Source of the DNA: a virus
Virus record (IMG/VR): IMGVR_UViG_3300045988_143938
Direction: 5' to 3' (one strand)
Length of the DNA: 64,000 bases
In this document: positions 24,573-54,157 of the stretch, one piece after another
Position numbering within the stretch: position 1 is the first letter of the stretch
Layout: each line of letters starts with the position of its first letter
Position numbers and translations under genes: made by a program
Notes under the pieces: generated by a model
The model's input: only the letters and a program-made list of their open reading frames with translations
Told to the model about the DNA's origin: nothing
The model's database searches: none

Positions 24573-24619
24573 TAGAATATATTCTAAATAATCAATACAA
24601 AAACATAGAAAATAGATGA
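24573..24619. promoter_or_regulatory. motif locus 1: palindrome TAGAATATATTCTA plus TAGAAAATAGATGA
   Basis: 24573-86 is a perfect 14-bp palindrome. 24606-19 is one copy of the recurring 14-mer. Confidence 0.6.
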
Positions 24620-24673
24620 TTTTTATTGCTTCTGCTTATGATTAATAGCCAATACTATCCGGCCATATAAATT

Positions 24674-24847
24674 TCATTTGCCCGGAGTAACTATTTTCAT
24701 GTATGGATTTATCATGCGTTTCCCTTTCAGCGTCTTTTCAAGCTCATCTATTCTTTCGTGTGCCATCTGTAAATCTTCGGACAGGCGCAATAATTGTCTC
24801 GCAAGGGAAACATTCTCTTTCTGCAATTCGTATATTTTTTCTTCCAT
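24674..24847 (-). CDS. small coiled-coil protein (57 aa)
   Basis: Hand-translated as MEEKIYELQKENVSLARQLLRLSEDLQMAHERIDELEKTLKGKRMINPYMKIVTPGK. Preferred over the plus-strand ORF 24678..24872. Confidence 0.45.
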   Translation of the reverse strand: MEEKIYELQKENVSLARQLLRLSEDLQMAHERIDELEKTLKGKRMINPYMKIVTPGK

Positions 24848-24936
24848 GATGAAATATTTGTTTAGATATTAATAATAGGGGTATAGTTATAGCTATCGGG
24901 CATTTGAACCGACTGCTAATTTATTAAATAGTACGA

Positions 24937-25254
24937 TTAGTATTTCCTCATGCAGCTTACGAATAAGGCTATAATAGATATAATAATACCTATGACGGAA
25001 AGTATTAAATTCCAATTAACAGGATTATGCAAGTTTGGATTAACGGCAAGGTAATGCTTTCCCTCTTCGGTGAGTTTGACGCTCCACACTTGACCGCCAA
25101 CCAAATAAGAAGCCTTTACTAACCCTTTTCTTTCAATGGAGCGAACGGATGCGGCAAATACATGCTTCGGATATGTAACAGGACATTCTCCGCCAAATTC
25201 CGAAACGATCCTAAATGCTTGCTTTTCCTCCTTTGTAAGTCTTATTCGCTCCAT
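24937..25254 (-). CDS. hypothetical protein with C-terminal TM anchor (105 aa)
   Basis: The N-terminal part may be winged-helix-like. The C-terminal WNLILSVIGIIISIIALFVSCM is hydrophobic. Confidence 0.55.
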   Translation of the reverse strand: MERIRLTKEEKQAFRIVSEFGGECPVTYPKHVFAASVRSIERKGLVKASYLVGGQVWSVKLTEEGKHYLAVNPNLHNPVNWNLILSVIGIIISIIALFVSCMRKY

Positions 25255-25314
25255 AACCTACTCGTTTTCTGCAAATTTACTAAATACTACGCAAATATGT
25301 GTTGTTGTGCTATA

Positions 25315-26136
25315 CTATTTTATAGGCGAAATCTTTCTGTCAGAAGGTTTCCCACCGAACAACTGATTGATATAAGCAAGTCCTTTGGGCTTACAAAGTA
25401 CCTTTTGATATAATATGTCGGGGTGGCTGTCTCTGTGTATAGGCGGTAACAGCGTCATTTCAAAATACCCGGCGTCAATGTACTTTTGTTTCGGTTCGTT
25501 CCTGTCTTTAAAGAATACGCCCACTTCCTTTAGCTTTTTAAAAAGGGTGTTTCTCCCGAAACCGAGGTTGAGAATCTTTGCGGCTTGGCCTATGTCTACT
25601 TTGCCCTCTGCTTTGAAAGCGGCTTCGGCAAAGTCGGCTTTGGGTTTTAGTTTGGCGTTCTTCTCTTCAAGCTGCTTCTTTTCTTGTTCTAATCTCGCCT
25701 TTTCCTCACGCTCATTTTTTAACTGTGTGGCAAGGCTGATAACAAGATCGGGGTTGTTTATCATCTGCTCCAAAGTTGGCTGCGTGGCGGTCATGCCGTA
25801 TTGGAGAAGCTCTTTGATGCGGTCATTGCACCATAAATAAAAGTCAGGAGAAAGCCATTGAGCGAAGATTAATGCCAAATCCTCATGTAACCATGTACCT
25901 TGATTGTTACCTCCTTGATTTACAGTAACTAAACCCGTTGCGGGAATTCCCGTTTTGGCTGATAATGAGCTAATTAACTCATTTGTCTGTTTTGTTGACA
26001 AAAAGTCATTACAGCGTTTTCCAAACGGTTTGGCCATTTCGGTGGCGTTCACCATTACACTATCGCCTTTCTGAAAGGTAATAGGACTTCCATTGTATTG
26101 GAAGATTTGATTTTCATTCAAGTGTCGCATAAACAA
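25315..26136 (-). CDS. antirepressor-type protein (KilA-N plus KilAC)
   Basis: N-terminus: ITFQKGDSVMVNATEMAKPFGKR...GTWLHEDLALIFAQWLSPDFYLWCNDRIKEL (KilA-N pattern). C-terminus: KPKADFAEAAFKAEGKVDIGQAAKILNLGFGRNTLFKKLKEVGVFF (KilAC pattern). Confidence 0.8.
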   Translation of the reverse strand: MFMRHLNENQIFQYNGSPITFQKGDSVMVNATEMAKPFGKRCNDFLSTKQTNELISSLSAKTGIPATGLVTVNQGGNNQGTWLHEDLALIFAQWLSPDFYLWCNDRIKELLQYGMTATQPTLEQMINNPDLVISLATQLKNEREEKARLEQEKKQLEEKNAKLKPKADFAEAAFKAEGKVDIGQAAKILNLGFGRNTLFKKLKEVGVFFKDRNEPKQKYIDAGYFEMTLLPPIHRDSHPDILYQKVLCKPKGLAYINQLFGGKPSDRKISPIK

Positions 26137-26166
26137 TGAAAATTAAAAGTTAATAATATAAGAAGA

Positions 26167-26242
26167 AAGCAGAGGCTTTCTCCAAGTTGCGACACTTCCA
26201 TATTGGCTTTGGGGCGAAATATGTACGGAGAAACCTCTGCTT
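26167..26242. other. long inverted repeat in the antirepressor leader
   Basis: AAGCAGAGGCTTTCTCC 26167-83 pairs with GGAGAAACCTCTGCTT 26227-42 (16 of 17 positions paired). A second pair, GCGACACT (about 26189-96) / AGTGTCGC (about 26305-12), lies nearby. Confidence 0.5.
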
Positions 26243-26376
26243 ATATTTTGGGCAGTAGTTCAATATAGGGCATAAAAAATCCCCAATCCAAATATGTATA
26301 TAAAAGTGTCGCACTGCAAAGATAGATATAATCTTTGAAATAGCAATGGTAGCCAAATATATTTTCAATAATTAGC

Positions 26377-26384
26377 TACCTTTG
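26377..26384 (+). promoter_or_regulatory. -7 box TAccTTTG
   Basis: TAnnTTTG match 27 nt upstream of the ATG at 26411. Confidence 0.4.
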
Positions 26385-26410
26385 CTGCGACAATTAAAAT
26401 TTATCTATAT

Positions 26411-26710
26411 ATGAAAGATGTATTTGATAGTTTCTCTATTGGAGATTTTGTATTCCAATCAGAGAATATGACCTATTCAGAATTTCTTGCTTTTTGCAAA
26501 TCTGTGTTAGACGAAATTGAAAAACTCAACTTATCAGATAACGGATTCTACAAAGAGAAGAAGAACTCTATTGTAAAACTTTACAGATTTGCAAAATCAG
26601 CAGAAGCGTACGTTCGCACAAACGGAGCTACCGCAGGCGGTAATTCAGAGACTGATCTTGTTTATTTGAAAGCAATCCTCGACGGGATAAAAAAACGTCA
26701 CAATCTCTAA
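26411..26710 (+). CDS. hypothetical protein (99 aa)
   Basis: Clean ORF with its own -7 box. The 3' end overlaps the convergent gene by 83 nt. Confidence 0.55.
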   Translation: MKDVFDSFSIGDFVFQSENMTYSEFLAFCKSVLDEIEKLNLSDNGFYKEKKNSIVKLYRFAKSAEAYVRTNGATAGGNSETDLVYLKAILDGIKKRHNL

Positions 26711-26924
26711 TGGGTTGCACAAAATCCTTTAGGCTGGCGTTCATCTTCTTAATGGCTGCCAGTCTTTTGTCTATTTCTTCTTCTTGCTCTAATCCGTTAT
26801 CTGCTCTCCACAGCTCTAAATCCGCAACTTCTGCTATAAGCATTTCAAGCTGAACAATAAACTCGTTACAATTCCTGTGTAATTGCAATTCCTTTCGTTC
26901 TCTTTTACTTATCTCATCTTTCAT
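26628..26924 (-). CDS. hypothetical coiled-coil protein (98 aa)
   Basis: The ATG at 26924 lies about 30 nt downstream of the minus-strand -7 box at 26956-63. Confidence 0.5.
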   Translation of the reverse strand: MKDEISKRERKELQLHRNCNEFIVQLEMLIAEVADLELWRADNGLEQEEEIDKRLAAIKKMNASLKDFVQPIRDCDVFLSRRGLLSNKQDQSLNYRLR

Positions 26925-26936
26925 AATTATTTCATG

Positions 26937-26977
26937 TATTTTCTATATTTTTGTGCAAATATATAGAAAATAGGTGA
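26937..26977. promoter_or_regulatory. motif locus 2: TATTTTCTATAT / ATATAGAAAATA inverted pair bracketing a -7 box, extended to TAGAAAATAGGTGA
   Basis: 26937-48 and 26961-72 form a perfect 12-bp inverted repeat. The 14-mer is at 26964-77. CAAATATA at 26956-63 is the minus-strand -7 box. Confidence 0.65.
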
Positions 26978-27082
26978 TTTTCTCAAGCGATGCGGATAAT
27001 AAAAGGGTGGATGTGTTTTATAACATACAATAGTTGTTACAATAAATCATAAATAAAATAATATTTATCAATATAAAGTTGT

Positions 27083-27090
27083 TAACTTTG
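27083..27090 (+). promoter_or_regulatory. -7 box TAacTTTG
   Basis: TAnnTTTG match 32 nt upstream of the lipoprotein ATG. Confidence 0.45.
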
Positions 27091-27121
27091 CCGCACATTA
27101 ATTAACAAAAACAAATGCTTT

Positions 27122-27505
27122 ATGAGAAAGATTTTATTTTTACTGGCAATGTTGCCAATGTTAATGTTTAGTGCATGTTCGGATGATGACGACGAAGTTA
27201 AGATTACCTCTGAGCAAGTTACAGGAAAATGGAATGTTACTTGGGTGCAAGAGGGAAGCGCAAGTTCTGATATATCCAAAGGGAATATATATATGGAACT
27301 AAGAAGCGATGGGTCTTACAAGACTGTAATATTCGGAGATTACTACATTGGAAAATGGAAACTTGAAGGGAGTACCGTTGTTGGAACTACAATAGACCCT
27401 ATTACCGAACGTTATACATTTACGTCATTTGACGGTAAGAATGCGGAAATAGACTACTCTAATAGCGAAGGTGATAAAATGAAGTTCAGAGCTACAAAAG
27501 AGTAA
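27122..27505 (+). CDS. lipocalin-like lipoprotein (moron)
   Basis: Signal peptide with lipobox MLMFSAC, an acidic linker SDDDDE, and GKWNVTW...GKWKLEG motifs typical of Bacteroides lipocalin-like domains. Confidence 0.75.
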   Translation: MRKILFLLAMLPMLMFSACSDDDDEVKITSEQVTGKWNVTWVQEGSASSDISKGNIYMELRSDGSYKTVIFGDYYIGKWKLEGSTVVGTTIDPITERYTFTSFDGKNAEIDYSNSEGDKMKFRATKE

Positions 27506-27545
27506 TACACAACTTTAAGGCTTAATATATTAGTACATCATCAGG

Positions 27546-27577
27546 TCAAGCGGAGGAAACTCCGCTTGATTTGTTTG
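27546..27577 (+). terminator. intrinsic terminator
   Basis: TCAAGCGGAG, a GAAA loop, CTCCGCTTGA, then TTTGTTTG. Confidence 0.75.
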
Positions 27578-27708
27578 TGAGAGAAAGTTATTCTGTATTA
27601 ATAAGTAATCTATTAAAAACTAAACATTTAGATTGGTGCCACTTCGTTGTATGCTATTAAACATGTATAAAAAAATAAGTGATTTATTGCAATATAAACT
27701 TTAGTCGC

Positions 27709-27809
27709 TATATTTGCATCATAATTACGCTCATGGCTACGCATACCCGAAAGCAGCTTCTTGCCGCTTATCCTTAAATAATGGGTATGCCGACCCCTGG
27801 GCATTTTTT
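27709..27809 (+). ncRNA. candidate about 90-nt small RNA (promoter-to-terminator unit)
   Basis: -7 box TAtaTTTG at 27709-16. 8-bp stem GCATACCC 27741-48 / GGGTATGC 27783-90. Terminal ATGCC/GGCAT hairpin plus T6 at 27804-09. Only 10-14-codon ORFs lie inside. Confidence 0.35.
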
Positions 27810-27942
27810 ATAAATAACCATAATGAAAAAAGACAACAACTTCTCACCTGTAAGGGTTGCCGTATTGGTAGATAGCGGTTTTTATAATTTTGATTAGGTA
27901 TTTCCAATCGAAATTTTCTCTGCTTTTCTTGCCTTACATATT

Positions 27943-28022: not shown

Positions 28023-28049
28023 TATATTTGCATATCAAATAGCGCTATA

Positions 28050-28298: not shown

Positions 28299-28303
28299 AT
28301 ATT

Positions 28304-40141: not shown

Positions 40142-40185
40142 AAAAAAAAGAGCCTATCAACGCTTTGTGCGTCAATAAGCTCTTT
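40142..40185 (-). terminator. leader terminator B (conserved with 24495..24545)
   Basis: On the minus strand, CAAGCCAAAGAGCTTATTGACG...CGTTGATAGGCTCTTTTTTTT. The outer stem is 40147-53/40179-85 and T8 corresponds to plus-strand A8 at 40142-49. Confidence 0.65.
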
Positions 40186-40208: not shown

Positions 40209-40388
40209 TTATTCCTTCGTCAGTCTAACTCTCATAAATTTACGGCATCTCCTGCATATAATCCTAATGGAAGAACTTCCGCAAACTTCCTCAACGTCCA
40301 TTATTTTCTGTTTACACACCGGACATATTGCAAAGTTTCCTTTTCTATCAGGTAACTCTTCATCGAGTTGGACGTCAATTTTTATCAT
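40209..40388 (-). CDS. Com-like zinc-ribbon protein (59 aa), first ORF of the leftward late unit
   Basis: Hand-translated as MIKIDVQLDEELPDRKGNFAICPVCKQKIMDVEEVCGSSSIRIICRRCRKFMRVRLTKE. CPVC...CRRC has zinc-ribbon spacing like the Mu Com family. Below the track cutoff. Confidence 0.5.
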   Translation of the reverse strand: MIKIDVQLDEELPDRKGNFAICPVCKQKIMDVEEVCGSSSIRIICRRCRKFMRVRLTKE

Positions 40389-40415: not shown

Positions 40416-40482
40416 TCACCTATTTTCTATAAAAACAACATTATAGACATATTTTTATGGGTAAAATTTAGAAAATAGATGA
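40416..40482. promoter_or_regulatory. motif locus 3: TCACCTATTTTCTA (40416-29) and GGGTAAAATTTAGAAAATAGATGA (40459-82), inverted pair in the divergent late promoter region
   Basis: Each copy lies next to a -7 box, at 40408-15 (minus) and 40490-97 (plus). Confidence 0.65.
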
Positions 40483-40497: not shown

Positions 40498-40527
40498 CAC
40501 TATATATTACTCATAGAGCTGTGAATC

Positions 40528-40574
40528 AAGCCGGAGTATGCAAAATCATATTGCATGCGACGGCTTATTTTTTT
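40528..40574 (+). terminator. leader terminator C immediately before the terL start codon
   Basis: AAGCCG 40528-33 pairs with CGGCTT 40561-66, with an inner ATGCA/TGCAT stem, then A + T7 (40568-74). The ATG is at 40575. Confidence 0.55.
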
Positions 40575-43265
40575 ATGGAATACGACGGAATTGTACATAC
40601 AAAAAATGGAGAGGGCGTATTTACTTATGCGCACATGGAAAAGCTGCGTGAATATGGAAATCCGCTTAATATAATCGCCCAAAAAGGATGTCAAGAAAAG
40701 TTCCTTGCGTCTCCGGCAGATATTACTATATTTGGAGGAAACCGTGGTGGCGGAAAGGCGCTGATATTCAATGAATTAGTGTGTACTCCGTTCGGATTTA
40801 GAAAAATCCAAGACATTAAAGCCGGCGACATAATCACTGGCCTTGACGGAGGAATGCAAAGGGTTGTTTACAACTCCTATCAGGGATTTAAAGAGTGTGT
40901 AAGACTTAAATTCGTTGACGGCTCTTATGCTGACTGCTGCATAGATCACTTATGGAATATCAAGCAATCTAACCATTGTTCAAAGAAAAGGGCTTTATAT
41001 AACCTCCCCTTAGAGGATGAATGGCGGGTGTGGACTACTCAAATGATTATAGACCACATGGAAAAGCAGAAGGGGAAGAAGCAGCCGCGCCATTTATCTG
41101 TTCCGTTGTGCAAGCCAGTTCGATTCACCAAAGGGAAATACTTCAAGCCTAAATTCAGTCCGTATCTGATTGGTGCGCTCATCGGGGACGGATGTATTGC
41201 CGATAGTGTAATCAGTAAAAACTGCTGTTATTTATTTAATCCTGACGAGGAAGTCATTGGCGAGTTCAAGAAATCAGTAGGGTATTCTTCTTGCGAGTTT
41301 GAGAAAGGCTGCTACCGCATGCGCATCAACGACAAAGAGCTTATCGCAGAGATTCAGAAATTGAATATAACAGGGCGTGCGGCAGATAAACACGTTCCTG
41401 ACATGTATTTATATGGGTCGCTGGAGGAAAGATGGGCGCTTGTTCAGGGCTTAATGGATACCGACGGAACTATTGATGAAAGAGGGCACCTGTCTTATAC
41501 TACAATAAGCAAACAGCTTGCGGAAGATGTAAAATTCCTTATCAACAGTTTGGGAGGATTGGCGACGATTGGCAGAGGCACCGCGGGGTATAGAAATAGC
41601 AATGGAAAATTTATCCAATGTAATGACGCATACACTCTTTATATAAGAATCCCGGATGCCGAAAGGATGTTTCGCGTAAAAAGGAAAAAGGAAAGATGCA
41701 AACCTTATAATGGCGGAATAAGCATCAATGCGAGAAGAATTATAGGCTACGATATGATAGGGAAGAAGGAGTGTTGCTGTATTGCAGTAACCAATCCGGA
41801 TAGTTTGTTTCTGACAAGGGATTTTATTGTCACCCATAATTCTTGGGCCTTGCTAATGGAGGTCTTGAAAGATATAAATAACCCGAATTTTGCTTCTGTA
41901 ATCCTGAGAAACGAAAAAGAGGACTTGAGTAATATAGTAAACAAGTCTTATGAACTTTTCTCTCAATACGGAAAGTACAACCGCTCTATCTCGGACATGA
42001 CTTGGAACTTCTATAACGGAGGTTTTTTAAAGTTTTCCTATTATGCGGATTCTTACGAAGACTTCGTAAAGCGTTTTCAGGGAAAAGAGTTTGCCTTTAT
42101 CGGTATAGACGAAATCACTCACTCTGATTACCTGAAGTTCAAATACCTTATTACCAACAACCGTAATGCCTACGGTATAAGAAACCGTTTTTATGGCACA
42201 TGTAACCCTGACCCGGATAGCTGGGTACGTAAATTCATAGACTGGTGGATTGATGAAAACGGTAACCCTATTCCGGAGCGAGACGGGGTAATACGCTATT
42301 GCTTCATGGATGGCGACCGACCGGAAGATATTTACTGGGGGGATTCCGTAGACGAAGTTTATAACCAATGCAGGCATATCATAGATCCGTTGCTTACGCC
42401 GGGTCTTATCAGTAAGGGTTACGACAAGTCGGCATTCGTGAAGACAGTCACATTCATAAAGGGAAAGCTTGAAGAGAACGTTGCTCTTATATCTTCCGAC
42501 CCTAATTATTTAGCCAACCTGGCCCAGCAGGACGAAGAATCTCGCGCAAGGGACTTGGAAGGGAACTGGAACTTTAAAGCTGCCGGGGATGATATTATCA
42601 AGATGGAACACATGGAGCGCTTCTTTAAAAATACCGCCCAATACGGAGACGAGAAGCGTAGGGTATCATGCGATATTGCATACGAGGGAGGAGACAACCT
42701 TGTCTTGTGGCTGTGGATCGGGAACCATATCGAAGATGTATATGTGAGTAGGGATAATTCCAAGCGGACGGAAGAGTGTGTTGCCCATAAACTTAGAGAG
42801 TGGGGCGTGCTGGAAAAGGATTTTGTTTTTGACTTAAACGGCCCCGGCCAGGATTTTAAAGGGAAATTCCCCGATGCGGTCAGGTTTAATAATATGGCTG
42901 CTCCAATACCCGCGACAAAAGCGGATGAGAAATCAATCAAGTATGTGTACTCCTCTTTAAAATCACAGTGTGCGGATATTCTTGTAAAAAAGATAAAGAA
43001 CGAGGAGATATCCATAAATCCCGATTTGTTATCGCGCAAATTCTCCGGTAACGGATATTCCGGAGTAACCCTTTATAATATTCTTATGAAAGAGAGAAAG
43101 GCTATTCGGGACGCGGAAACAGACAAAGGGTTTGCCTTGATTAAAAAGGAAACTATGAAAAAATACGTCGGGCACTCTCCTGACTTTATAGAAGCGATGA
43201 TTTACAGACAAATTTTTGATATAAAAAAACATAACACAAAACCAAAAGGATTATGGAGATTATAA
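40575..43265 (+). CDS. terL: terminase large subunit, intein-containing precursor
   Basis: Walker A GGNRGGGK|...|S is interrupted. Walker B is FAFIGIDEITH. GTCNPD is present, followed by a nuclease-half-sized C-terminus. The start is set at MEYDG because the track start 40479 overlaps the promoter motif. Confidence 0.9.
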   Translation: MEYDGIVHTKNGEGVFTYAHMEKLREYGNPLNIIAQKGCQEKFLASPADITIFGGNRGGGKALIFNELVCTPFGFRKIQDIKAGDIITGLDGGMQRVVYNSYQGFKECVRLKFVDGSYADCCIDHLWNIKQSNHCSKKRALYNLPLEDEWRVWTTQMIIDHMEKQKGKKQPRHLSVPLCKPVRFTKGKYFKPKFSPYLIGALIGDGCIADSVISKNCCYLFNPDEEVIGEFKKSVGYSSCEFEKGCYRMRINDKELIAEIQKLNITGRAADKHVPDMYLYGSLEERWALVQGLMDTDGTIDERGHLSYTTISKQLAEDVKFLINSLGGLATIGRGTAGYRNSNGKFIQCNDAYTLYIRIPDAERMFRVKRKKERCKPYNGGISINARRIIGYDMIGKKECCCIAVTNPDSLFLTRDFIVTHNSWALLMEVLKDINNPNFASVILRNEKEDLSNIVNKSYELFSQYGKYNRSISDMTWNFYNGGFLKFSYYADSYEDFVKRFQGKEFAFIGIDEITHSDYLKFKYLITNNRNAYGIRNRFYGTCNPDPDSWVRKFIDWWIDENGNPIPERDGVIRYCFMDGDRPEDIYWGDSVDEVYNQCRHIIDPLLTPGLISKGYDKSAFVKTVTFIKGKLEENVALISSDPNYLANLAQQDEESRARDLEGNWNFKAAGDDIIKMEHMERFFKNTAQYGDEKRRVSCDIAYEGGDNLVLWLWIGNHIEDVYVSRDNSKRTEECVAHKLREWGVLEKDFVFDLNGPGQDFKGKFPDAVRFNNMAAPIPATKADEKSIKYVYSSLKSQCADILVKKIKNEEISINPDLLSRKFSGNGYSGVTLYNILMKERKAIRDAETDKGFALIKKETMKKYVGHSPDFIEAMIYRQIFDIKKHNTKPKGLWRL
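40758..41840 (+). mobile_element. intein (361 aa) with LAGLIDADG homing-endonuclease domain, class-3-like
   Basis: Block A: ALIFNELVCTPFGFRKIQDI. Block B: GSYADCCIDHLW. LAGLIDADG motifs: LIGALIGDGCI and LVQGLMDTDGTI. Block F: ECCCIAV. Block G: FIVTHN, followed by Ser +1. Confidence 0.8.
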
Positions 43266-44788
43266 ACACACGCCAGATTATGGTACGTCGTCCGTTCCGG
43301 AGGATATTGCCAAATGGCTATAAAGCCGCTGCTGGGGTTATTTCAGGAAACACCCTCATCAATGAACCGTCTGATAATCCTACGTATCAGATAATAACTC
43401 AAATGGACTTCATGCGTGAGTTTGAGCCTTCGGGACATGCGATTAATGACCCGCTGGTATATCCTGACAGGTTAAGGCAGGACCCGGAGACGAAGCAATG
43501 GTTCAGGGAGTATGTTATCAGATGCGCTTTTGCTTTTCAAAGAATAATAACGGTCAAGCATCTTGTCCACCTTTGCGGGAATGATATTCAGTTTGAAATG
43601 GAAGGCGATACCGAGAATGAGAAAGTGAAAGATACCTTCTTTAAATTTAGAACGGGATGGGCCGTAAAAGACATGGAAATCGCATGGTACGAGGCCGCTA
43701 AGTCTGTAAAGATAACCGGAGATACGGCATTTGTGGGATACCTTAGAAAAGGAAAATTCTATTGGAAAGTCCTTTCTTTTGAAAAAGGTGATGTATTGTA
43801 TCCTCATTTTGATAATGTTACAGGAGAGCTATCCTTGTTTGCCCGTTCTTATTCCAATTACGACAGCAGCGGGAATATTGTGACCGACTGGCTGGAGGTG
43901 TGGGATGAAAAGTATCTCCGTCGCTTTAAAAAAGGAGGAAAGGGATACAGCAAAATCAAACAAGTAATAAAAAACTTATTTGGATTGGACGGTTATGAAC
44001 TCGTCTCTCAGCAAGAGCATGGGTTTACGTTTATTCCTGTGGCTTACCATAGATGCGATGCCGGAGCTTGTTGGTCTCCCTCGCAAGACAGTATAGAGCA
44101 ATACGAACTCGCTTTCTCCCAGCTATCTCAAAACAATACAGCCTATGCGTTCCCGATTATGTATTTCAAGGGAGAAAATATAAATATAGATGGAGGTGTT
44201 GACGGAACTGTAAAATGTATCACAATGGGGCCGGACGATGAAGCCGGATACCTTAATAAACAGGATGTATCTACGGCTTTCGAAAAGCAGCTCGATACTC
44301 TTTACAAGCTGATATATGAACAGTCGTTTGCTGTAATTCCTCCGGAGGTAAGAAGCGGCGATCTTCCGGGTGTGGCTATAAAGCTGCTTTATTCACCGGC
44401 GTTTGAGAATGCGATGAAGGATGCGCAAGAATATAACCGCCTCGTGGACGACATGGTGAAGATTTTCACCTATGGATACGGAGTGGAAACGGAAAATCTT
44501 ATAGACCTGCAAAACTTGAGTGTATATGCTTGGATAAAACCCTATATCCATTTGAATGAATCGGAGCTTGTGCAGAATCTTGCCACTTGTGTGCAAAACG
44601 GATTTTTATCACGTCAAACCGCAAATGAGCAGATTCAAATGTATAGCAATCCCCGCGACTGGGACAGGATAATGAGAGAGAAAAAGGAAGAGCAGCAGGC
44701 TGATATCCTTTATCAACTCAAAACCACGCAACCTACTCCCGAAGAAGAGGAACCCGAACACAACCCGGCTGGAGATGATAAGCAATGA
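43253..44788 (+). CDS. portal protein (511 aa)
   Basis: Size, position directly after terL (13-nt overlap), and an acidic C-terminus. Confidence 0.75.
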   Translation: MEIINTRQIMVRRPFRRILPNGYKAAAGVISGNTLINEPSDNPTYQIITQMDFMREFEPSGHAINDPLVYPDRLRQDPETKQWFREYVIRCAFAFQRIITVKHLVHLCGNDIQFEMEGDTENEKVKDTFFKFRTGWAVKDMEIAWYEAAKSVKITGDTAFVGYLRKGKFYWKVLSFEKGDVLYPHFDNVTGELSLFARSYSNYDSSGNIVTDWLEVWDEKYLRRFKKGGKGYSKIKQVIKNLFGLDGYELVSQQEHGFTFIPVAYHRCDAGACWSPSQDSIEQYELAFSQLSQNNTAYAFPIMYFKGENINIDGGVDGTVKCITMGPDDEAGYLNKQDVSTAFEKQLDTLYKLIYEQSFAVIPPEVRSGDLPGVAIKLLYSPAFENAMKDAQEYNRLVDDMVKIFTYGYGVETENLIDLQNLSVYAWIKPYIHLNESELVQNLATCVQNGFLSRQTANEQIQMYSNPRDWDRIMREKKEEQQADILYQLKTTQPTPEEEEPEHNPAGDDKQ

Positions 44789-46600: not shown

Positions 46601-48208
46601 CTATTCTTCAACAAAATCATCACTCAGGAAATCATCATCCGAATATTCCCAGCCCTCAAACAGGTTCGTTTTCGCTTCTTCGGCAATGTTGGGTACATGT
46701 CTCATAAAATTGTTCGCGATGTCCTCGTTCCCACACCACAGATTATAAGAGTTGTTGTATCCCTTTTCCCTCACGTATCCGAGAGAAAGCATGTCGATAC
46801 CCAGCTTTCTTTGCGACATAGGGACGATCCCGTTCTTCTTGCAGAATCGTTCATAGTTCTTGTATATCTCCGATGATGTGAAATTGATAACGCCGCTTCC
46901 TTCAAATTCTTCGGGCTGGCACTCCTTGTATTTGAGGTATTCCGATATACTTCCGTCCACAAGCTTTCCGTCCCGTCCTATGACCGTAGAGCGTATCCTC
47001 TCCAGCTTCATATCTATCTTTCCTCCGAGATTCTCCGGCATCCTCCAGTTGTTTTTCTTTAGCTCGCAAAGACCTTTGACTATCCAAGCCATTATGCCGG
47101 CATGTTCCGATTTGAGCCTTTCCGCGAGCATGGTATCCCTTTTCTCTACGGGGATAGTCTTGTCGAAATTAAGTACGAGCGCCCGTCTCTGCATACTCTC
47201 ATCATCCGGGTCCTCCCGGTTAAGAAAGTCCTTTGGCTGCCAACGGTAGTTAGAGTTACACAGCATGATAGGCGGTCTTTGCATCATCGTTATATTGCCG
47301 CCTATTCCCCGGCAGGCAATAGGTTCCCCGCTGGAGATAGCCTTTATGATGCTCATATCCTTAAAATCCCCTCGGTTACTCTCCGTACAGTACATAAGCC
47401 TCTTCCCGGACATGGAATACGCAGCACGAAGCTGTTCATCACCTCTGCTGGCAAACTGGCTCATCTTGATATTAAGTATCTCGTCCTCTCCGAACATATC
47501 CTTAAGCACCCGGTAGATAACACTCTTCCCGTTTGCTCCCGTACCTTGCAATATCAGGAAATACTCAAAGCTTATATTACGTCTGTTGACAAGACAGGCT
47601 CCAAGAAACATCTGTAATATTCTCCGCTTGTGCTTCTCAGGAAGAACACCGTCCATATCATCCGTAGGCATCCAGTTCTCTCCGAGGAAACTTCTCCATA
47701 TAGGACAGTTGAATATCTCCTTGCGGTCATACTTGAACGGATACATCTTCACACAATCAAAGCGGGGAGAGTGGGGATAGGTCTTTAACCGGTTCATGTC
47801 AACGACACAGTTAGTGAAGCACATAATACTAAGGTCGGGACGAAGCTCATGGTCCCGGATAACATTGATTATACGGTTCATATAGGCATACATGGCCTTA
47901 TTGGTACGGTCACGAGCTGCAACACCCATCTTCTCAAGCCACCTGTCTACGGCATCATACAGGACATTGTAATCCATGAACTCATATATCTTACCCGTAA
48001 AAACATACAAGGAGCTATAATGAGAGGTGTTATCCCTCGTCAAAACACCATAACCCTCCCTGAATAACTCCTCAAGGCGTCTGCCGTATCTGTCTGTGCG
48101 CTCAGGATTGCTTGTAACCAAAGATATATCCCTGAACGTAGCCGCATATTCATCGCAATGTTCGGATAATAATCCAAGTACGTAATCCTTTAAATCCTTC
48201 CTATCCAT
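46601..48208 (-). CDS. P4/D5-family primase-helicase (SF3 NTPase)
   Basis: Walker A LILQGTGANGKSV, LMYCTES (Walker B-like), and size and context next to origin-like DNA. Confidence 0.8.
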   Translation of the reverse strand: MDRKDLKDYVLGLLSEHCDEYAATFRDISLVTSNPERTDRYGRRLEELFREGYGVLTRDNTSHYSSLYVFTGKIYEFMDYNVLYDAVDRWLEKMGVAARDRTNKAMYAYMNRIINVIRDHELRPDLSIMCFTNCVVDMNRLKTYPHSPRFDCVKMYPFKYDRKEIFNCPIWRSFLGENWMPTDDMDGVLPEKHKRRILQMFLGACLVNRRNISFEYFLILQGTGANGKSVIYRVLKDMFGEDEILNIKMSQFASRGDEQLRAAYSMSGKRLMYCTESNRGDFKDMSIIKAISSGEPIACRGIGGNITMMQRPPIMLCNSNYRWQPKDFLNREDPDDESMQRRALVLNFDKTIPVEKRDTMLAERLKSEHAGIMAWIVKGLCELKKNNWRMPENLGGKIDMKLERIRSTVIGRDGKLVDGSISEYLKYKECQPEEFEGSGVINFTSSEIYKNYERFCKKNGIVPMSQRKLGIDMLSLGYVREKGYNNSYNLWCGNEDIANNFMRHVPNIAEEAKTNLFEGWEYSDDDFLSDDFVEE

Positions 48209-48348
48209 ATTTATTATATAACGTTTTTATAAGCATACCATAAAGAACATAACGGAACTGGGATTAGGTCTCATTCTTAAAAATAACATCTTCTCTTCTC
48301 TCTTTTGAGGGTTAAAAATATATATATATGTTCTTTATCATCATTATG

Positions 48349-48381: not shown

Positions 48382-48422
48382 ATTTTCTAAAAAAATAGGG
48401 GTAAAATTTAGAAAATAGGTGA
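48382..48422. promoter_or_regulatory. motif locus 4: ATTTTCTA (48382-89) and GGGTAAAATTTAGAAAATAGGTGA (48399-422)
   Basis: The 24-mer matches 40459-82 at 23 of 24 positions. Confidence 0.65.
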
Positions 48423-49135: not shown

Positions 49136-49374
49136 TAATGTAAGAAAGAGGTAAACATAAGGCCTTTAATCTTACAAGCGTTGTTTATATGATGAGATAT
49201 AAAAGAACCTGCTAACACAGGGAATGCTAACAGGTTCAAAGAAGGGAATAACTTAGATAAGTACCCAACAGGAAAGGCAAAGGTACTTATCTTGGTTTAA
49301 ACTTCCAAATTATCCGCTTATAAAATTTAGACGCTGTAATAAAGTTGAATTATAAACATTTAAATATTACAGTT

Positions 49375-50654: not shown

Positions 50655-50682
50655 TTGATTTTCAACTTTAAAACAAAAGGAT

Positions 50683-50877: not shown

Positions 50878-50890
50878 GGAGGAATAAACT

Positions 50891-51031
50891 ATGTATTTAG
50901 GCTTTATACTTTGGGCGATAATTTTAGTTGTGATCGTGTGGAATACTAACCCGGCACTAGTTATTATATCCGTAGTGATAGGGGTTGTGTTTGCGATTGC
51001 AAAAACAACAGATAATAAACCAAAAGAATGA
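50891..51031 (+). CDS. mini 2-TM protein (46 aa)
   Basis: MYLGFILWAIILVVIVWNTNPALVIISVVIGVVFAIAKTTDNKPKE. GGAGGAATAAACT lies upstream. Confidence 0.4.
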   Translation: MYLGFILWAIILVVIVWNTNPALVIISVVIGVVFAIAKTTDNKPKE

Positions 51032-51032
51032 C

Positions 51033-51875
51033 ATGGAAACATTGAAGGACGTTTTTTTGAAAAAATACCCGCAATACGGAAAGGTGCTGCGGGTATATGA
51101 AGAGGTTAACGAAACGGAGTGCACCTTCGAGAGTATTACAAAACCAAGGTTGTACAACTTCGTTCAGGCTCTTAATGACAGGCTGGCAACAAACAGTGCT
51201 AAAACCTATTGCGCTATGTTTAAATCGGTTCTTAACCTGTACAGCGATATGTATTCTTTCCCGAAAGGCTTTGAAGCTATATTAACCCTGAAGAAGGACG
51301 CAACGCAAAGTACATGGTTAACGGATGAAGAAATTAAAAAACTACTCTCATACGATCCGGCTAATGATACAGAACGGACAGTGAAAAACTGTTTTCTTCT
51401 CGGTTGTCTGACAGGTGCAAGACATTCGGACTACGTATGTTTTACAGAGGACAATATAATAGACGGACGACTGGTCTATATTTCCCAAAAAACAAAAACG
51501 AAAGCGGAGATTCCAGCGGCTCCGGCTGTGTTACGGATATTAGAGGAAAACAAAAAGTACAACCTTAGCCAGCGGAAACTGTCTGATGTGACATTTAATG
51601 ATACGATAAGAAGTATATGCCGGAAGTGTGGAATAAACCAACGAATAAAACTGTATCAGGCGGGCGAATATGCAACAGGGGAAAAGTGGGAGTTTATTTC
51701 CTCGCATTCAGCGCGGAAGTCTTGCGCAACCAACTTATATTTAAGGGGAGCGGATCTGTATTCTATCAGCCGGATGTTAGGACACTCCAGTGTAACCATG
51801 ACGGAAACGTATATTTGTTGCGGGCTGCGTGAATTGTCAGATAAGATAATAGGATATTTCAACGGGTTTAAATAA
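51033..51875 (+). CDS. tyrosine recombinase (short, 280 aa)
   Basis: The catalytic set is visible: GARHSD (Arg), SHSARKSCAT (His-x-x-Arg) and LGHSSVTMTETY (His...Tyr). Confidence 0.8.
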   Translation: METLKDVFLKKYPQYGKVLRVYEEVNETECTFESITKPRLYNFVQALNDRLATNSAKTYCAMFKSVLNLYSDMYSFPKGFEAILTLKKDATQSTWLTDEEIKKLLSYDPANDTERTVKNCFLLGCLTGARHSDYVCFTEDNIIDGRLVYISQKTKTKAEIPAAPAVLRILEENKKYNLSQRKLSDVTFNDTIRSICRKCGINQRIKLYQAGEYATGEKWEFISSHSARKSCATNLYLRGADLYSISRMLGHSSVTMTETYICCGLRELSDKIIGYFNGFK

Positions 51876-51955
51876 TATGCTTTAAAACATACTGTATAAG
51901 ATGAATTAAAGAGAGATAAACGGTATTTTTGCAAACAATTTTAAAAAAAAAGGTT

Positions 51956-52156
51956 ATGAAAACTTACGATGTACACTTCAACGACGCTAACGACTCTAAT
52001 AGCAAAGGTTTTAATGAATCATTTGAGTATTGCAAAAATTATATAGAAACCTATAACGGCACCAATGAATCATATTTCGAGGACTACAAGGGAGGAATCG
52101 TATCGATCGTGTGTAATGAAACCGGAGAAGAGGTTTATTCGGAGGATATAAGATAG
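51956..52156 (+). CDS. hypothetical acidic protein (66 aa)
   Basis: ATG at 51956. Confidence 0.5.
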   Translation: MKTYDVHFNDANDSNSKGFNESFEYCKNYIETYNGTNESYFEDYKGGIVSIVCNETGEEVYSEDIR

Positions 52157-52157
52157 A

Positions 52158-52400
52158 ATGGAGCAAGAAAGTAGATACGCATACGACGAGGAAAGCGTAA
52201 AACATATTGTGCACTGGGCTTTAACGGCCCAGCTGCCTACTCAAATAGAGTTGAGCGAATCGGAGAGTATATTTGATGTTAAGAAGTACATACAGGCGAA
52301 CATAAACGACATAAACCAACATTTTCCGGACCCATTTTACAATCCGGCAATTGATAGACTGTACAGGTTGAAGGAATTTATGGATAACTCGCAATCCTGA
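52158..52400 (+). CDS. hypothetical protein (80 aa)
   Basis: Starts 2 nt after the upstream stop. Confidence 0.5.
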   Translation: MEQESRYAYDEESVKHIVHWALTAQLPTQIELSESESIFDVKKYIQANINDINQHFPDPFYNPAIDRLYRLKEFMDNSQS

Positions 52401-52417
52401 AACGAACATATACACAC

Positions 52418-52465
52418 AGCCCGGCGAACGATTTTGCATCTTTATAAGACCTCTTCCGCCGGGCT
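52418..52465. terminator. 9-bp inverted repeat between convergent genes
   Basis: AGCCCGGCG 52418-26 pairs with CGCCGGGCT 52457-65. Confidence 0.5.
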
Positions 52466-52471
52466 ATTGAA

Positions 52472-53605
52472 TTACAATTTACTGTCCATCTTTTCAAATT
52501 CTTCTTGTACGGACTTGTTTAGCACTTTGGCGTAGATCTGTGTAGTTTTTATATCCGTATGTCCCATCATTTTTGCAAGGTTTTCAATCGAAACTCCCAT
52601 ATTCAATGCCATAACCGCAAAACTATGCCGGGCCATGTGCGAATGTAGGTTTTGTTTTATCCTCGCGAGCTCCTGAACGACTTTCAGTCTTAAATTATAC
52701 TGATAGTTGCTTATTACGGGCAGTTTGAAATCGTATTTTTGCAGAATTTCCATTGCGGGCTTAAGAAGCATCAGGAAATACTCTTCTTCCGTTTTTACTC
52801 TTACGTCTCTTATAAAGAATTTGTTCCCTTTCTTGATTACACCGCTAAAATCAAAGTTGAACAAATCTGCATAAGACAAACCCGTAAAACATTGGAATAC
52901 GAACAAGTCTCTAACCCGTTCAATGCTCTCGGATGCCGTTTTTAAGCCTTGTATTTGCTTTATCTGTTCTAAGGTGAGGTATTTTATACCTTCGCTCTTT
53001 CCGCGCTCAAATTTGAGCTTATTATACGGGTTGTCTTTCAGCAAATCATATTTGATGGCTTCGTTTATATATCTTTTCAGGCGCTTATGATAACCATGTA
53101 TTGTCGTCTGCTTGTTGTACTTCCCATGAAGGAAATTGTCATAGTGCATTATGTTAGCCGTAGTAACGTCCGTAAAGTAAACGATCCGACCGAACTCTTT
53201 CAGGGATGTTATTAAGGAGGCATGCGTATTTAACGTTCCTTGCCTGAGGTCGGTTCTTTCGCCCACTCTCCGTTTTATAAAATCTATAAAGCTTTCTTTT
53301 GTTTGGGAATACTTTAAAAAGTGTTCCAGCTTATCAAAACTGAAAGGTTCTTTGTTTTTTACCAACCCGTTTATGAACTCGTTGATGTTCCGCATTTGCG
53401 TATCAAGCCTTTCGTTGAGGTCTAAAGATTGAACGGTATTCTTAACCTTTGTTTTTTCGCTCCATTGGTCGGAATACAACCGAACGCCTGTACTTAACCA
53501 TTTTCTTTTCCGTTCAAACAAAATTTCTATTTGAACGGTTCCTTTCGTTGTCTTGCTTGCCGTATGTTTACGGTCAAAAACAAACCTTAATACTGGATAC
53601 TTCAT
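52472..53605 (-). CDS. int: site-specific integrase (Bacteroides-type tyrosine recombinase, 377 aa)
   Basis: The N-terminal MKYPVLRFVFDRKHTASKTTKGTVQIEILF arm-binding style is typical of Bacteroidetes integrases. C-terminus: HMARHSFAVMALNMGVSIENLAKMMGHTDIKTTQIYAKV. Confidence 0.9.
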   Translation of the reverse strand: MKYPVLRFVFDRKHTASKTTKGTVQIEILFERKRKWLSTGVRLYSDQWSEKTKVKNTVQSLDLNERLDTQMRNINEFINGLVKNKEPFSFDKLEHFLKYSQTKESFIDFIKRRVGERTDLRQGTLNTHASLITSLKEFGRIVYFTDVTTANIMHYDNFLHGKYNKQTTIHGYHKRLKRYINEAIKYDLLKDNPYNKLKFERGKSEGIKYLTLEQIKQIQGLKTASESIERVRDLFVFQCFTGLSYADLFNFDFSGVIKKGNKFFIRDVRVKTEEEYFLMLLKPAMEILQKYDFKLPVISNYQYNLRLKVVQELARIKQNLHSHMARHSFAVMALNMGVSIENLAKMMGHTDIKTTQIYAKVLNKSVQEEFEKMDSKL

Positions 53606-53619
53606 AATTTAAAAGATTT

Positions 53620-53697
53620 GGTATCACACAAGGGTATCACATTTGTATCACATTTCGTGAAATAGAATGAAATAGAATGAACTAAAATGAAACAACA
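53620..53697. repeat. clustered direct repeats next to int: (G)GTATCACA x3, then four 10-bp TGAA-phased units
   Basis: GTATCACA occurs at 53621, 53634 and 53645. The units TGAAATAGAA, TGAAATAGAA, TGAACTAAAA and TGAAACAACA span 53658-97. Confidence 0.8.
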
Positions 53698-53722
53698 TTA
53701 GCGGTGTGTTTGTTCTCCTAAA

Positions 53723-53932
53723 TCATTGATTATTACGTAAAACGCTGATAATAAACAAAAAGGGACTACGTTTTTGTAATCCCTTGCTGTGATCCGCAAG
53801 AAATGTGCAAACTTTAGTATCTTTAAATAATTTATACGACAAAGGGTCTATTTCATTTTTGTCAATATAATCTCCATTTATCATTCTTTTTAAGAGAATT
53901 TCCGTATTACTGTATTTTTCATAGTTTTCCAT
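53723..53932 (-). CDS. hypothetical protein (69 aa)
   Basis: The start is set at MENYEKY. The longer track ORF extends into AT-rich promoter-like DNA. Confidence 0.35.
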   Translation of the reverse strand: MENYEKYSNTEILLKRMINGDYIDKNEIDPLSYKLFKDTKVCTFLADHSKGLQKRSPFLFIISVLRNNQ

Positions 53933-54116
53933 ACTCTTAAAATTCAAATAGTTACATAAAATATGTTTTATAACATATAGAATAGTGTGCAAATAATACA
54001 AAATATATACTATCTTTGCATTGTTGTTAGAACGATAGAACGACAGCAACAATACATAAAAAACAGAAGCAGCTATAAAAACCGCTTATTAGTATTTGTT
54101 GATGGCAAAAATAACA

Positions 54117-54157
54117 ATTTTCTAAATAAAATCAAATAAAACATAGAAAATAGGTGA
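54117..54157. promoter_or_regulatory. motif locus 5: ATTTTCTA (54117-24) and TAGAAAATAGGTGA (54144-57)
   Basis: Inverted pair 10 nt upstream of the ATG at 54168. Confidence 0.6.

Follow-up and report, generated by a model that had tools for sequence, protein, structure and literature searches.

The repeated 14-base word TAGAAAATAGRTGA in the window (the whole 64,000-nucleotide stretch of viral DNA analyzed here) is real and represents a locally lengthened version of an 8-base core, TAGAAAAT. The evidence supports a promoter-associated cis-element at module boundaries that is much commoner than chance and is kept out of coding DNA, and the set of copies most likely represents docking sites of a putative phage regulator that switches the phage operons. 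In particular, TAGAAAAT is predicted to be the recognition core of a phage-encoded, sequence-specific DNA-binding regulator with repression or a roadblock as its favored mode of action, a reading that is held tentatively and with slightly less than even confidence.

Six exact copies of the 14-mer are present in the window, at 24606-19, 26964-77, 40416-29 (-), 40469-82, 48409-22 and 54144-57, precisely where the preliminary description had placed them, compared with 0 matches in 100 dinucleotide-preserving shuffles; TAGAAAATACATGA at 26932-45 (-) makes a seventh copy, deviating at a single position. The 8-mer is found ten times, with nine copies inside five control loci and 9/10 copies intergenic against an intergenic share of 12.4% of the window (binomial 6e-8). 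Inverted pairs of the form ATTTTCTA-N17-40-TAGAAAAT number four in the window versus none in the shuffles, which upholds the half-site pairing described earlier at four loci. The inverted partner stands 8, 18-19 or 39 bp away, and the half-sites are separated by about 1.5, 2.5 or 4.5 helical turns, differing by about whole turns; such separations are uncommon for a dimer with simple symmetry. Inspection of the sequence likewise confirms the perfect 12-bp inverted repeat (26937-48 and 26961-72), the palindrome at 24573-86, and the identity of 40459-82 and 48399-422 at 23/24 positions. The 14-mer as the motif requires amendment: the word itself stands, its AGRTGA tail is limited to the window's own lineage, and comparison with relatives indicates that the functional and conserved unit is the 8-mer in inverted pairs, the 14-mer being lineage-specific.

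At site A, upstream of the leftward tail-fibre operon promoter, the distal element is a full 14-mer, TAGAAAATAGATGA (24606..24619, +), with its partner core 19 nt away; the proximal element is a palindrome, TAGAATATATTCTA (24573..24586), containing two degenerate cores, and the proximal core TAGAATAT (24579-86, -) ends 6 nt upstream of the fibre-operon -7 box TATATTTG (24565..24572, -). Site B is a long palindrome, TCATGTATTTTCTA-N18-TAGAAAATAGGTGA (26932..26977), which heads a leftward island operon that includes the KilA-N/Ant gene 25315-26136 and encloses two overlapping, opposed -7 boxes, 26946-53 (+) and 26956-63 (-). The C-left 14-mer (40416..40429, -) has a core that ends 6 nt upstream of the -7 box 40408-15 (-) serving the Zn-ribbon gene and head operon, and the C-right 14-mer (40469..40482, +) has a core that overlaps the -33 position and ends 13 nt upstream of the -7 box 40490-97 (+) serving the terminase/portal operon. 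Sites D and E share the structure ATTTTCTA-N19-TAGAAAATAGGTGA; the former (48382..48422, +) lies 25 nt upstream of the -7 box 48349-56 (-), the promoter of the primase/helicase operon, and the latter (54117..54157, +) is situated within the leader of the rightward early operon, which has its promoter box at 54011-18, with 10 nt between the end of the site and the ATG at 54168. The boxes reported previously at 26956-63, 40408-15 and 40490-97 were recovered, and additional ones were located at 24565-72 (-), 26946-53 (+), 48349-56 (-) and 54106-13 (-). Of the claim that the loci are operon starts at module boundaries, the association with module-boundary promoters stands, but the site assigned to the start of the "xis operon", site E, is a transcribed leader and not a promoter. 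Two sites extend the earlier list: a degenerate TAGAAAAA at 7025-32 (+), followed after 5 nt by a -7 box TATATTTG at 7038 (unit 7025..7045) and heading the anti-repressor gene 7159-8082, and a degenerate core, TACAAAAT, located 6 nt upstream of the box of the early promoter at 54011.

One core copy usually lies 3-6 nt upstream of the Bacteroides -7 box (TAnnTTTG), within the -33/-7 spacer, as at A, C-left and 7038; at C-right it covers the -33, the cores of site B bracket both -7 boxes and the start sites, and site E is downstream of its promoter in the leader, where a bound protein could only hinder. The motif promoters possess consensus -7 boxes with TTG 19-20 nt upstream and should therefore fire unaided. 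Positions at A, C-left, 7038, C-right, B (anti-repressor operon) and E fit negative control, and A, D and E each combine a strong distal site with a weak one nearer the promoter, a classical layout of cooperative repression. Under such control, the promoters, of host type (sigma-A, TAnnTTTG) and heading the tail-fibre, head, packaging, replication and anti-repressor operons, would be bound by a regulator that occupies strong sites in cooperation with their weaker partners; the bound protein would then occlude RNA polymerase or serve as a roadblock, consensus-strength promoters would be kept silent until released by the lytic programme, and intrinsic terminators in the leaders could provide the late operons with a second lock. 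Site positions favor repression or a roadblock, with a Q/AlpA-like loader or activator as a serious rival. Besides the unusual half-site separations, further features count against repression or are left unexplained by it: the core-to-box distances of 3-6, 13-15, 25 and 37 nt fall into roughly one helical phase, which is expected for proteins touching RNA polymerase and speaks against simple occlusion; the primase pair upstream of the -33 element occupies an activator-type position; and a repressor does not account for the leader terminators behind A, C-left, C-right and 7038.

These leader terminators, which were absent from the preliminary description, lie behind several motif promoters and make the antiterminator option worth considering. 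For instance, an intrinsic terminator at 24507..24545 (-), which separates promoter A from the opening gene of the fibre operon (start 24473), combines a U-run with a preceding 17-bp stem (-25.5 kcal/mol, z -4.8), and LoVEphage, L279, L281 and Dulem-like phages have a leader terminator at this location as well. Another, at 40528..40574 (+), directly precedes the terminase ATG (40575) with -26.4 kcal/mol, z -4.7 and a U-run, shows compensatory stem changes across clades, and recurs in LoVEphage and Dulem virus 40. The terminator at 40147..40185 (-), where the Zn-ribbon gene (40209-40388) gives way to the head operon, is paralogous to that in the site-A leader, and a hairpin with a U-run occurs at ~7079-7102 in the leader after the 7025..7045 promoter. 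Consensus promoters at A, C-right, 7038 and the window-specific box 54106 are followed by an intrinsic terminator within 40-75 nt, and at C-left the terminator comes after a 59-aa ORF; a terminator within 75 nt accompanies 4/7 motif promoters versus ~2/21 others.

Such an arrangement argues for a loading or activator site of a late positive regulator resembling lambda Q or Pseudomonas AlpA, by which an early-operon protein, with HTH_17 (54371-54619) as the best candidate, would bind TAGAAAAT in the promoter spacer, contact RNA polymerase, and allow it to pass the terminators of the leaders and transcribe the fibre, head, packaging and anti-repressor operons; this is considered possible, albeit rather unlikely. 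The promoter-then-terminator layout kept in LoVEphage, Dulem virus 40, L279 and L281, the compensatory changes in the terminase hairpin, and the single helical phase agree with it, as does the core between -33 and -7 at A, C-left and 7038, since the binding elements of Q (lambda) and AlpA (Pseudomonas aeruginosa) also lie between the hexamers of a constitutive promoter that is followed by an intrinsic terminator before the operon (PMC9371919). However, activation is impossible from B, which brackets the -7 boxes and start sites, and from E in the leader, positions unable to load polymerase; a leader terminator was not found at the site D promoter; the initially transcribed regions contain no recurring -7-like, pause-inducing element; a Q/AlpA mechanism has no use for the inverted partners; and no Q- or AlpA-like protein was recognized. 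A separate conserved leader element, AGAGCT...AAGCC, is also present and could be the real antitermination signal.

The candidate HTH_17 protein (54371..54619, +; 82 aa) is an excisionase-like winged helix with an N-terminal helix of 31 residues, and its gene is translationally coupled to a 68-aa ORF (54168-54374). Its model resembles excisionases and BldC (RdfS 8dgl, Xis 4j2n and BldC 6ama, with weak E-values only), not Q or AlpA. Excisionase-family HTH proteins acting as transcription regulators in mobile elements offer a precedent by analogy. The CTnDOT proteins Xis2c and Xis2d act in Bacteroides and bind upstream of the constitutive tra promoter to raise its output, which would also suit a positive regulator, and deletion of the tra leader results in a 10-fold increase (PMC3809561); mycobacteriophage D29 gp36 is an excisionase-family HTH repressor, and known HTH_17/MerR-like members bind direct head-to-tail repeats (PMC12266134). 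The likeness to Xis2c/Xis2d, gp36 and Streptomyces BldC resides in the window's small Xis-like winged-helix gene, which adjoins the integrase module; unlike their sites, the window repeats are inverted with long spacers, and HTH_17 is a candidate binder only. A second candidate is a CI-like HTH protein of ~105 aa, encoded beside the integrase in relatives and missing from the window through a 2.7-kb deletion; both candidates are conserved wherever the core is conserved. The window has no CI-like gene, having lost both of those that relatives carry, with products of ~105 and 118-147 aa; therefore, any lysogen-expressed repressor here would have to be another protein.

Compared with temperate-phage repressor sites (lambda OL/OR-type operators and the mycobacteriophage L5 gp71 "stoperators"), the motif is similarly a short word repeated at many intergenic control points, overlapping lytic promoters or sitting in transcribed leaders, with a core conserved across the phage cluster and varying flanks. 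It differs in consisting of inverted 8-mers 8/19/39 bp apart, in the absence of the repressor gene from the window, and in occurring in both orientations, mostly upstream of promoters, whereas the L5 stoperators, as Brown et al. in 1997 are said to have described, are one-orientation and intragenic. Moreover, the switch promoter of relatives with CI-like genes has a single degenerate core (TACAAAAT or cAGAAAAT) without a partner; hence, TAGAAAAT is not a classical immunity operator, and an immunity (CI/switch) role is unlikely. The earlier choice among a repressor operator, an activator site and an antiterminator loader is narrowed by the evidence without being settled. P2 Ogr and Mu C-type activator sites, whose upstream position is constant and whose promoters have poor -35 elements, similarly provide one dyad-symmetric element common to all late operon promoters, but in the window the distance to the -7 box varies between 0 and 37 nt and the promoters look complete.

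An intrinsic promoter element for host RNA polymerase, namely an A-tract or extended motif preceding the -7 box that phage promoters would share owing to strength and not regulator binding, is improbable. Degenerate TACAAAAT, cAGAAAAT, TTGAAAAT, TATAAAAT and AGAAAAAT do lie 3-7 nt upstream of -7 boxes, the early switch promoter and distant prophages (Prevotella, Barnesiella, others) having such versions, and in B40-8 promoters an A-rich run with a terminal T likewise precedes the box by ~7 nt. Nevertheless, exact cores also stand 13, 15, 25, 37 and 52 nt from boxes and in both orientations, distal copies lack a following box, the distal copy at D surpasses every other element of its region in conservation, and many window promoters have no core; a generic Bacteroides promoter element was rejected, as GAAAAT occurs 2-7 nt upstream in 0/78 TAnnTTTG boxes of Bacteroides phage B40-8.

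Far less probable are DNA recombination sites, whether crossover points of a site-specific recombinase or homology patches for module exchange instead of transcription signals. The module-boundary location, the two tyrosine recombinase genes (51033-51875 and 52472-53605), and the left-flanking gene at B, which is not the same in close relatives and changes exactly at the motif, would be accommodated, but the C region has one orientation at all ~75 related loci, the enclosed 18-39 bp segments are too short for inversion, and the fixed distance to -7 boxes is left unexplained. An integrase arm site was rejected, the likely arm-type repeats being another word, GTATCACA, in three copies at 53621-52. 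Scarcely credible is an RNA hairpin formed by the two arms and acting on transcripts: complementarity of the arms, better folding of pairs B and C than of shuffles, and transcription of pair E speak for it, but pairs A, D and E reach only -1.9 to -5.3 kcal/mol, no better than shuffles, and a stable hairpin was rejected. Start sites fall within the element at B, neither pair C, located between two divergent promoters, nor pair D, upstream of its promoter, is transcribed as a unit, and the invariant arms show no covariation.

Comparison with relatives indicates that the core is an invariant island within otherwise diverged intergenic DNA and is kept at the same promoter positions across a widespread gut Bacteroides phage family. 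In the LoVEphage group (portal identity 86-91% and ~51% to the window phage), TAGAAAAT/ATTTTCTA occupy the same positions with diverged fillers and spacers, and spacer lengths are kept at 6/39/13 at the head/terminase promoters, identical across four clades, and at 19 at the primase and fibre promoters. Between the head/terminase boxes, the two cores are invariant at 15/16 columns versus 22/60 others (p 4e-5), with the C-left core and its 6-nt spacing invariant in four clades. The distal core of the primase promoter is invariant at 8/8 versus 4/45 flanking columns (p 6e-7), and the 19-nt spacer keeps its length and changes its sequence across clades. Relative L279 has an exact TAGAAAAT at the site-A proximal position with the same 6-nt gap to the box. 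LoVEphage itself (portal ~51% identical) carries the same core at syntenic promoters, and its most repeated 11-mer is ATTATTTTCTA. The pair equivalent to site E precedes the homologous gene in relatives, with LoVEphage having a single core 3 nt before the gene, and the core pattern recurs in Bacteroides and Phocaeicola prophages.

The preliminary description had placed the 14-mer TAGAAAATAGRTGA at six positions in the window, and all six are occupied by it, with no match in 100 dinucleotide-preserving shuffles. When mismatches are allowed, a seventh copy, TAGAAAATACATGA (26932-45, -), is obtained, which forms the left arm of the palindrome at site B, the promoter of the island/anti-repressor operon (26932-26977); the perfect 12-bp inverted repeat at this site, the palindrome at 24573-86 in the fibre-operon promoter (site A, 24573-24619), and the 23/24 identity between 40459-82 and 48399-422 were likewise found as claimed. 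The 8-mer core TAGAAAAT occurs ten times in the window, nine copies being within five control regions, and 9/10 are intergenic, against an intergenic share of the window of 12.4% (binomial 6e-8). The layout ATTTTCTA-N17-40-TAGAAAAT, in which ATTTTCTA is the inverted partner form, was counted four times versus zero in shuffles; the core occurs in both orientations, and the pairs are inverted.

Conservation in relatives further differentiates the element into a core and an extension. For the head/terminase promoters (C-left, 40416-29, and C-right, 40469-82), loci from four clades were picked by means of the portal gene, not the motif, and the region between the Zn-ribbon and terminase genes has the same layout in all four, box-6 nt-ATTTTCTA-39 nt-TAGAAAAT-13 nt-box, with the 6-, 39-, and 13-nt stretches diverging in sequence; the cores are invariant at 15/16 positions versus 22/60 of the other columns (Fisher 4e-5). 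At the primase promoter (site D, 48382-48422), the distal core is invariant at 8/8 positions versus 4/45 for the spacer and flank (6e-7), the 19-nt length of the spacer is maintained across clades, and the proximal half decays to ATATTATA in two clades. Similarly, the fibre promoter of a relative whose first gene is 79% identical reads ACTTTCTA-N19-TAGAAAAT-6 nt-TATATTTG. The exact 14-mer is absent from the genome of the related LoVEphage; nonetheless, the core is present at syntenic sites, as ATTATTTTCTA-N8-TAGAAAATAAT ahead of the terminase and of the fibre operon, as two copies ahead of the helicase operon, and as one copy 3 nt ahead of the homologue of the ORF at 54168, while ATTATTTTCTA is the most repeated 11-mer of that genome. 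The AGRTGA tail is confined to the window's own clade, in whose strains position 11 of the 14-mer toggles between G and A at the same site. Because the flanks diverge and the tail is clade-limited, the 8-mer is taken as the functional unit and the 14-mer as a lineage-specific extension; thus, the proposal that the repeated word is a regulatory element stands for the core, which is kept across clades, but not for the long form as its unit. The core is predicted, with high confidence, to be a protein-binding regulatory DNA site.

When each promoter is read in its own direction towards TAnnTTTG, the Bacteroides -7 box, a shared plan is seen: a distal copy is separated by a spacer from a proximal TAGAAAAT, and a short gap follows before the box. 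The gap is 6 nt at site A (where the core reads TAGAATAT), 6 nt at C-left, 13 nt at C-right, and 25 nt at site D; a degenerate site, TAGAAAAA (7025-32), precedes by 5 nt the box at 7038 that heads an anti-repressor gene, and a core lies 3 nt before a window-specific box at 54106. Since a TTG is read from the sequences 19-20 nt upstream of the boxes, the core falls within the -33/-7 spacer at A, C-left, and 7038, and in LoVEphage it is likewise flanked by the two promoter elements at A and D; in the window, C-right has it over the -33 position, at D it sits just upstream of -33, and at B and E it is not between the promoter elements either. Site B departs from the plan in that its arms adjoin a pair of -7 boxes that overlap and face opposite ways, 26946-53 (+) and 26956-63 (-), and the element therefore spans both start sites. 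Site E (54117-54157), described earlier as the start of the xis operon, does hold the pair, but the pair lies ~100-140 nt beyond the early promoter box (54011), in the leader of the early xis-like operon, and ends 10 nt short of the ATG at 54168. Transcribed DNA holds only site E, plus site A under read-through from the island operon.

Several other readings of the element were rejected. A generic Bacteroides sigma-A promoter element is ruled out because none of the 78 TAnnTTTG boxes of the unrelated Bacteroides phage B40-8 has GAAAAT 2-7 nt upstream, most other boxes of the window lack a core, and the core-to-box distance varies between 0 and 52 nt; however, boxes are often preceded at ~7 nt by A-rich runs ending in T, and degenerate cores occur also at early promoters and in distant prophages, so part of the proximal copy may overlap a generic promoter preference. 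An RNA hairpin is dismissed, as folding is not stronger than in shuffles for the pairs at A, D, and E, and neither C nor D is transcribed as a whole; an Rfam search of the window returned no family. An invertible promoter or segment is contradicted by ~75 loci in one orientation and by segments of merely 18-39 bp, and a Shine-Dalgarno role of AGGTGA by the facts that only site E precedes a start codon and that the tail is absent from sister clades. Finally, an integrase arm site is ruled out, since a different repeat, GTATCACA, adjoins int in three copies. These three repeats (53621-53652, +) lie 11-13 bp apart directly upstream of the integrase start and are followed in relatives by GAAATAGAATGA-type repeats; these repeats are likely arm-type sites of attP.

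Of the repressor, activator, and antiterminator options initially offered, the regulatory-site reading common to them is well supported, whereas the direction of control is only inferred. Negative control is put forward, tentatively, as the most likely main mode: a phage regulator would bind the cores, thereby repressing or roadblocking transcription. Such action fits every site position, whether in the spacer, over -33, or in the early leader, and fits the bracketing of the -7 boxes and start sites of the anti-repressor operon; promoters that are seemingly able to fire unaided are in keeping with it as well. Alternatively, a Q/AlpA-type loader or an activator may act at the cores, a less likely but serious rival, for which the downstream leaders are one argument. 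Motif promoters tend to have intrinsic terminators ahead of the operon body, namely at 24545-24507 after promoter A, at 40528-40574 directly before the terminase ATG, at 40185-40147 after the 59-aa Zn-ribbon gene downstream of C-left, and at ~7079-7102 after the 7038 promoter, with a weaker one in the B operon before the KilA-N/Ant gene and none in the leader of site D. A terminator lies <=75 nt from the box at 4/7 motif promoters versus about 2/21 others, the promoter-then-terminator layout is found again in LoVEphage, Dulem virus 40, and other relatives, and the terminase hairpin stem is preserved via compensatory changes.

Loading at the cores is further favoured by their spacer position, which is that of the lambda Q-binding and AlpA-binding elements (PMC9371919), by core-to-box distances (3-6, 13-15, 25, and 37 nt) in roughly constant helical phase, and by the precedent of CTnDOT in Bacteroides, in which excisionase-family proteins boost a constitutive promoter with an inhibitory leader (PMC3809561). 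As in Q/AlpA systems, an intrinsic terminator stands between promoter and operon at A, C-right, and 7038, and at C-left after an ORF; however, sites B and E and the inverted partners are left unaccounted for, no pause element was found in the initially transcribed region (no TAnnTTTG-like word recurs within ~25 nt downstream of the boxes), and Pfam and PHROGs scans of ~50 window ORFs gave no Q- or AlpA-like protein. L5-type stoperators differ as well, being asymmetric, in one orientation, and in transcribed regions, whereas the present sites take both orientations and are mostly untranscribed.

The leaders contain further conserved words. The fibre and head leader terminators, 24507-24545 (-) and 40147-40185 (-), are paralogues (AAGCCAAAGAGCTkATTrACG...), and the word AGAGCT...AAGCC also lies ahead of leader hairpins in LoVEphage and Dulem virus 40; the terminase leader (40515-40535, +) carries the invariant 24-nt stretch TCATAGAGCTGTGA(A/T)TCAAGCCGG. 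These words could be a separate antitermination or pause signal. In the primase-operon leader, 48209-48342 (-), a long-range stem AAAGAACATA ... TATGTTCTTT is found also in an 85%-identical clade although the interior differs, and it is not a terminator because it has no U-run. To the right of the primase promoter, in AT-rich DNA with few genes (49205-49285, -), the -7 box TACCTTTG at 49278 is followed ~35 nt on by a strong 14-bp hairpin with a U-run (49237-49205), which may define a short ~80-nt transcript, e.g., an sRNA or a replication primer.

Repression at the cores resembles a CI-type immunity operator set in that repeated specific sites overlap lytic promoters, with the difference that in relatives the switch promoter, which adjoins the repressor gene, holds no full site and that no CI-like repressor gene is present in the window. 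In relatives, such as contig IMGVR_UViG_3300045988_139342, and also in contigs with the same 14-mers, two CI-like HTH genes lie between int and the early operon; the first product has ~105 aa and is 62-69% identical across exact-core clades, and the second (118-147 aa), which has a coiled-coil tail, shows no more than ~29% identity from clade to clade, its LoVEphage version being a fusion with an S24 peptidase. Both genes are missing from the window, where ~200 bp (53798-53996) stand in place of ~2.7 kb of the related locus L334 (1089-3825); in close relatives, the lost 2.7 kb, from integrase to early operon, comprises the two CI-like genes and two further genes. Because this stretch is lost, the window may be a repressor-less, possibly virulent, deletion variant, and the CI-like genes are retained in six clade-1 contigs with the same motif, that is, in 6/6 loci reaching far enough upstream. 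The argument that the motif is no repressor site for want of a CI gene was accordingly dropped, as the loss is a deletion seen only in the window.

At the switch promoter of four related loci (L047, L334, L335, and L337) and LoVEphage, at most one degenerate core is present and the inverted partner is absent, so the TAGAAAAT set is probably not the immunity operator. The start site of that promoter instead bears clade-variable inverted repeats (GTAAC..GTTAC, GTTGC..GCAAC, GTAATA..TATTAC) that look like an immunity determinant. In the window, an inverted repeat GTTGTT..AGCAAC lies at 54019-54054 (+), directly past the early promoter box, with equivalents in L047, L334, L335, and LoVEphage, and the switch-promoter leader of relatives also ends in a terminator; the repeat after the early box is either an immunity operator or a 5' RNA hairpin whose changes are compensatory.

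Among the candidate proteins, the 68-aa product of the ORF at 54168 (54168-54374) is always trailed, with an ATGA overlap, by an 82-aa HTH_17 protein (54371-54619). The former gives a confident model (pLDDT 94), no family match, and no meaningful match in a fold search with that model; the latter is modelled as a 31-residue helix plus an excisionase-like winged helix, the nearest structures being RdfS, mycobacteriophage Xis, and BldC with weak E-values, and its helix-turn-helix residues are its most conserved part. PDB sequence searches with both proteins gave no match. The 105-aa CI-like protein is conserved as well as the HTH_17 candidate, and none of the three proteins is missing from any lineage examined, even from Dulem virus 40 with its degenerate core; presence or absence therefore cannot pick the cognate protein.

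The first gene after promoter C-left, upstream of the terminator, encodes a 59-aa four-cysteine zinc-ribbon protein (40209-40388, -) that is kept in LoVEphage and Dulem virus 40. Its CxxC...CxxC spacing and IRIICRRCRKFMRV stretch are taken by eye to resemble phage Mu Com, an RNA-binding translational activator, a likeness that Pfam does not confirm; neither this protein nor the CI-like proteins of relatives had a Pfam match.

By analogy with other excisionase-family proteins, a dual regulator would reconcile repression with loading. The window shares with such regulators (Xis2c/Xis2d, gp36, BldC) an HTH_17/Xis-like winged-helix protein in its integration module, and D29 gp36, of the excisionase family, is a repressor (PMC12266134). 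However, the known members bind direct head-to-tail repeats, whereas the pairs here are inverted. It is doubtful, although conceivable, that the TAGAAAAT pairs and conserved leader terminators make up a DNA-loaded antitermination system for Bacteroidota sigma-A (-33/-7) promoters, controlled by a small excisionase-like protein with a second role in excision. If antitermination were the true reading, no earlier Q/AlpA-like late switch would be on record for Bacteroidota, and this one would operate in a temperate phage group that ranks among the most prevalent in the human gut.

Phages with regulator sites dispersed over their promoters are already known. The literature searched makes no mention of the motif or of regulation in the LoVEphage group, and describes neither the element nor its conservation across the family nor its coupling with leader terminators. 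Very little has been charted of how temperate Bacteroides phages regulate their genes. The element stands at the start of the operons for fibre, head, packaging, replication, and anti-repressor functions and in the leader of the early xis-like operon, throughout a phage group found very commonly in the human gut; LoVEphage was detected in ~8% of 1,241 viromes, and few temperate phages of the gut are commoner than its group (PMC12629997). An 8-bp word, defined promoters and leader terminators, and three or four small candidate proteins provide a testable handle for working out prophage silence and switch-on, and the same parts could serve for phage-derived regulated promoters in Bacteroides engineering.

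The window represents the circularly permuted genome of a temperate siphovirus, with an integrase (52472-53605), a second tyrosine recombinase (51033-51875), a D5-type primase/helicase (46601-48208), a terminase (40575-43265, +), and a portal (43253-44788). Megablast against deposited phage records gave no close relative; the portal is ~51% identical to those of the Bacteroides phages LoVEphage, BI-TP1, and PV4-TP1, with the same gene order, and many IMG/VR contigs are near-identical or have 86-91% portal identity. The composite 14-mer pattern had no match in 185,579 representative genomes, by which neither host nor attachment site was found, and an IMG/VR scan for ATTTTCTA-N7-9-TAGAAAAT is uninformative, since it hit >120 unrelated AT-rich contigs with one match apiece. 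The large terminase has 896 aa versus ~540 aa in LoVEphage and contains an intein-like insert with a LAGLIDADG homing-endonuclease domain. Three anti-repressor-type proteins (AntA/KilAC; KilA-N plus Ant) are encoded in this one phage, at 7159-8082 (+), 25315-26136 (-), and 61572-62405 (+), and the motif or a degenerate form is at the promoters of two of the three genes. In the island operon, a 105-aa protein (24937-25254, -) without a family match appears by eye to combine a winged-helix domain with a transmembrane helix at its C-terminus. The short second tyrosine recombinase (280 aa) is followed by a DUF6965 protein (51033-52400, +), and this pair, kept in Dulem virus 40 and in LoVEphage (there beside a ParA-like gene), may serve dimer resolution or plasmid-like maintenance.
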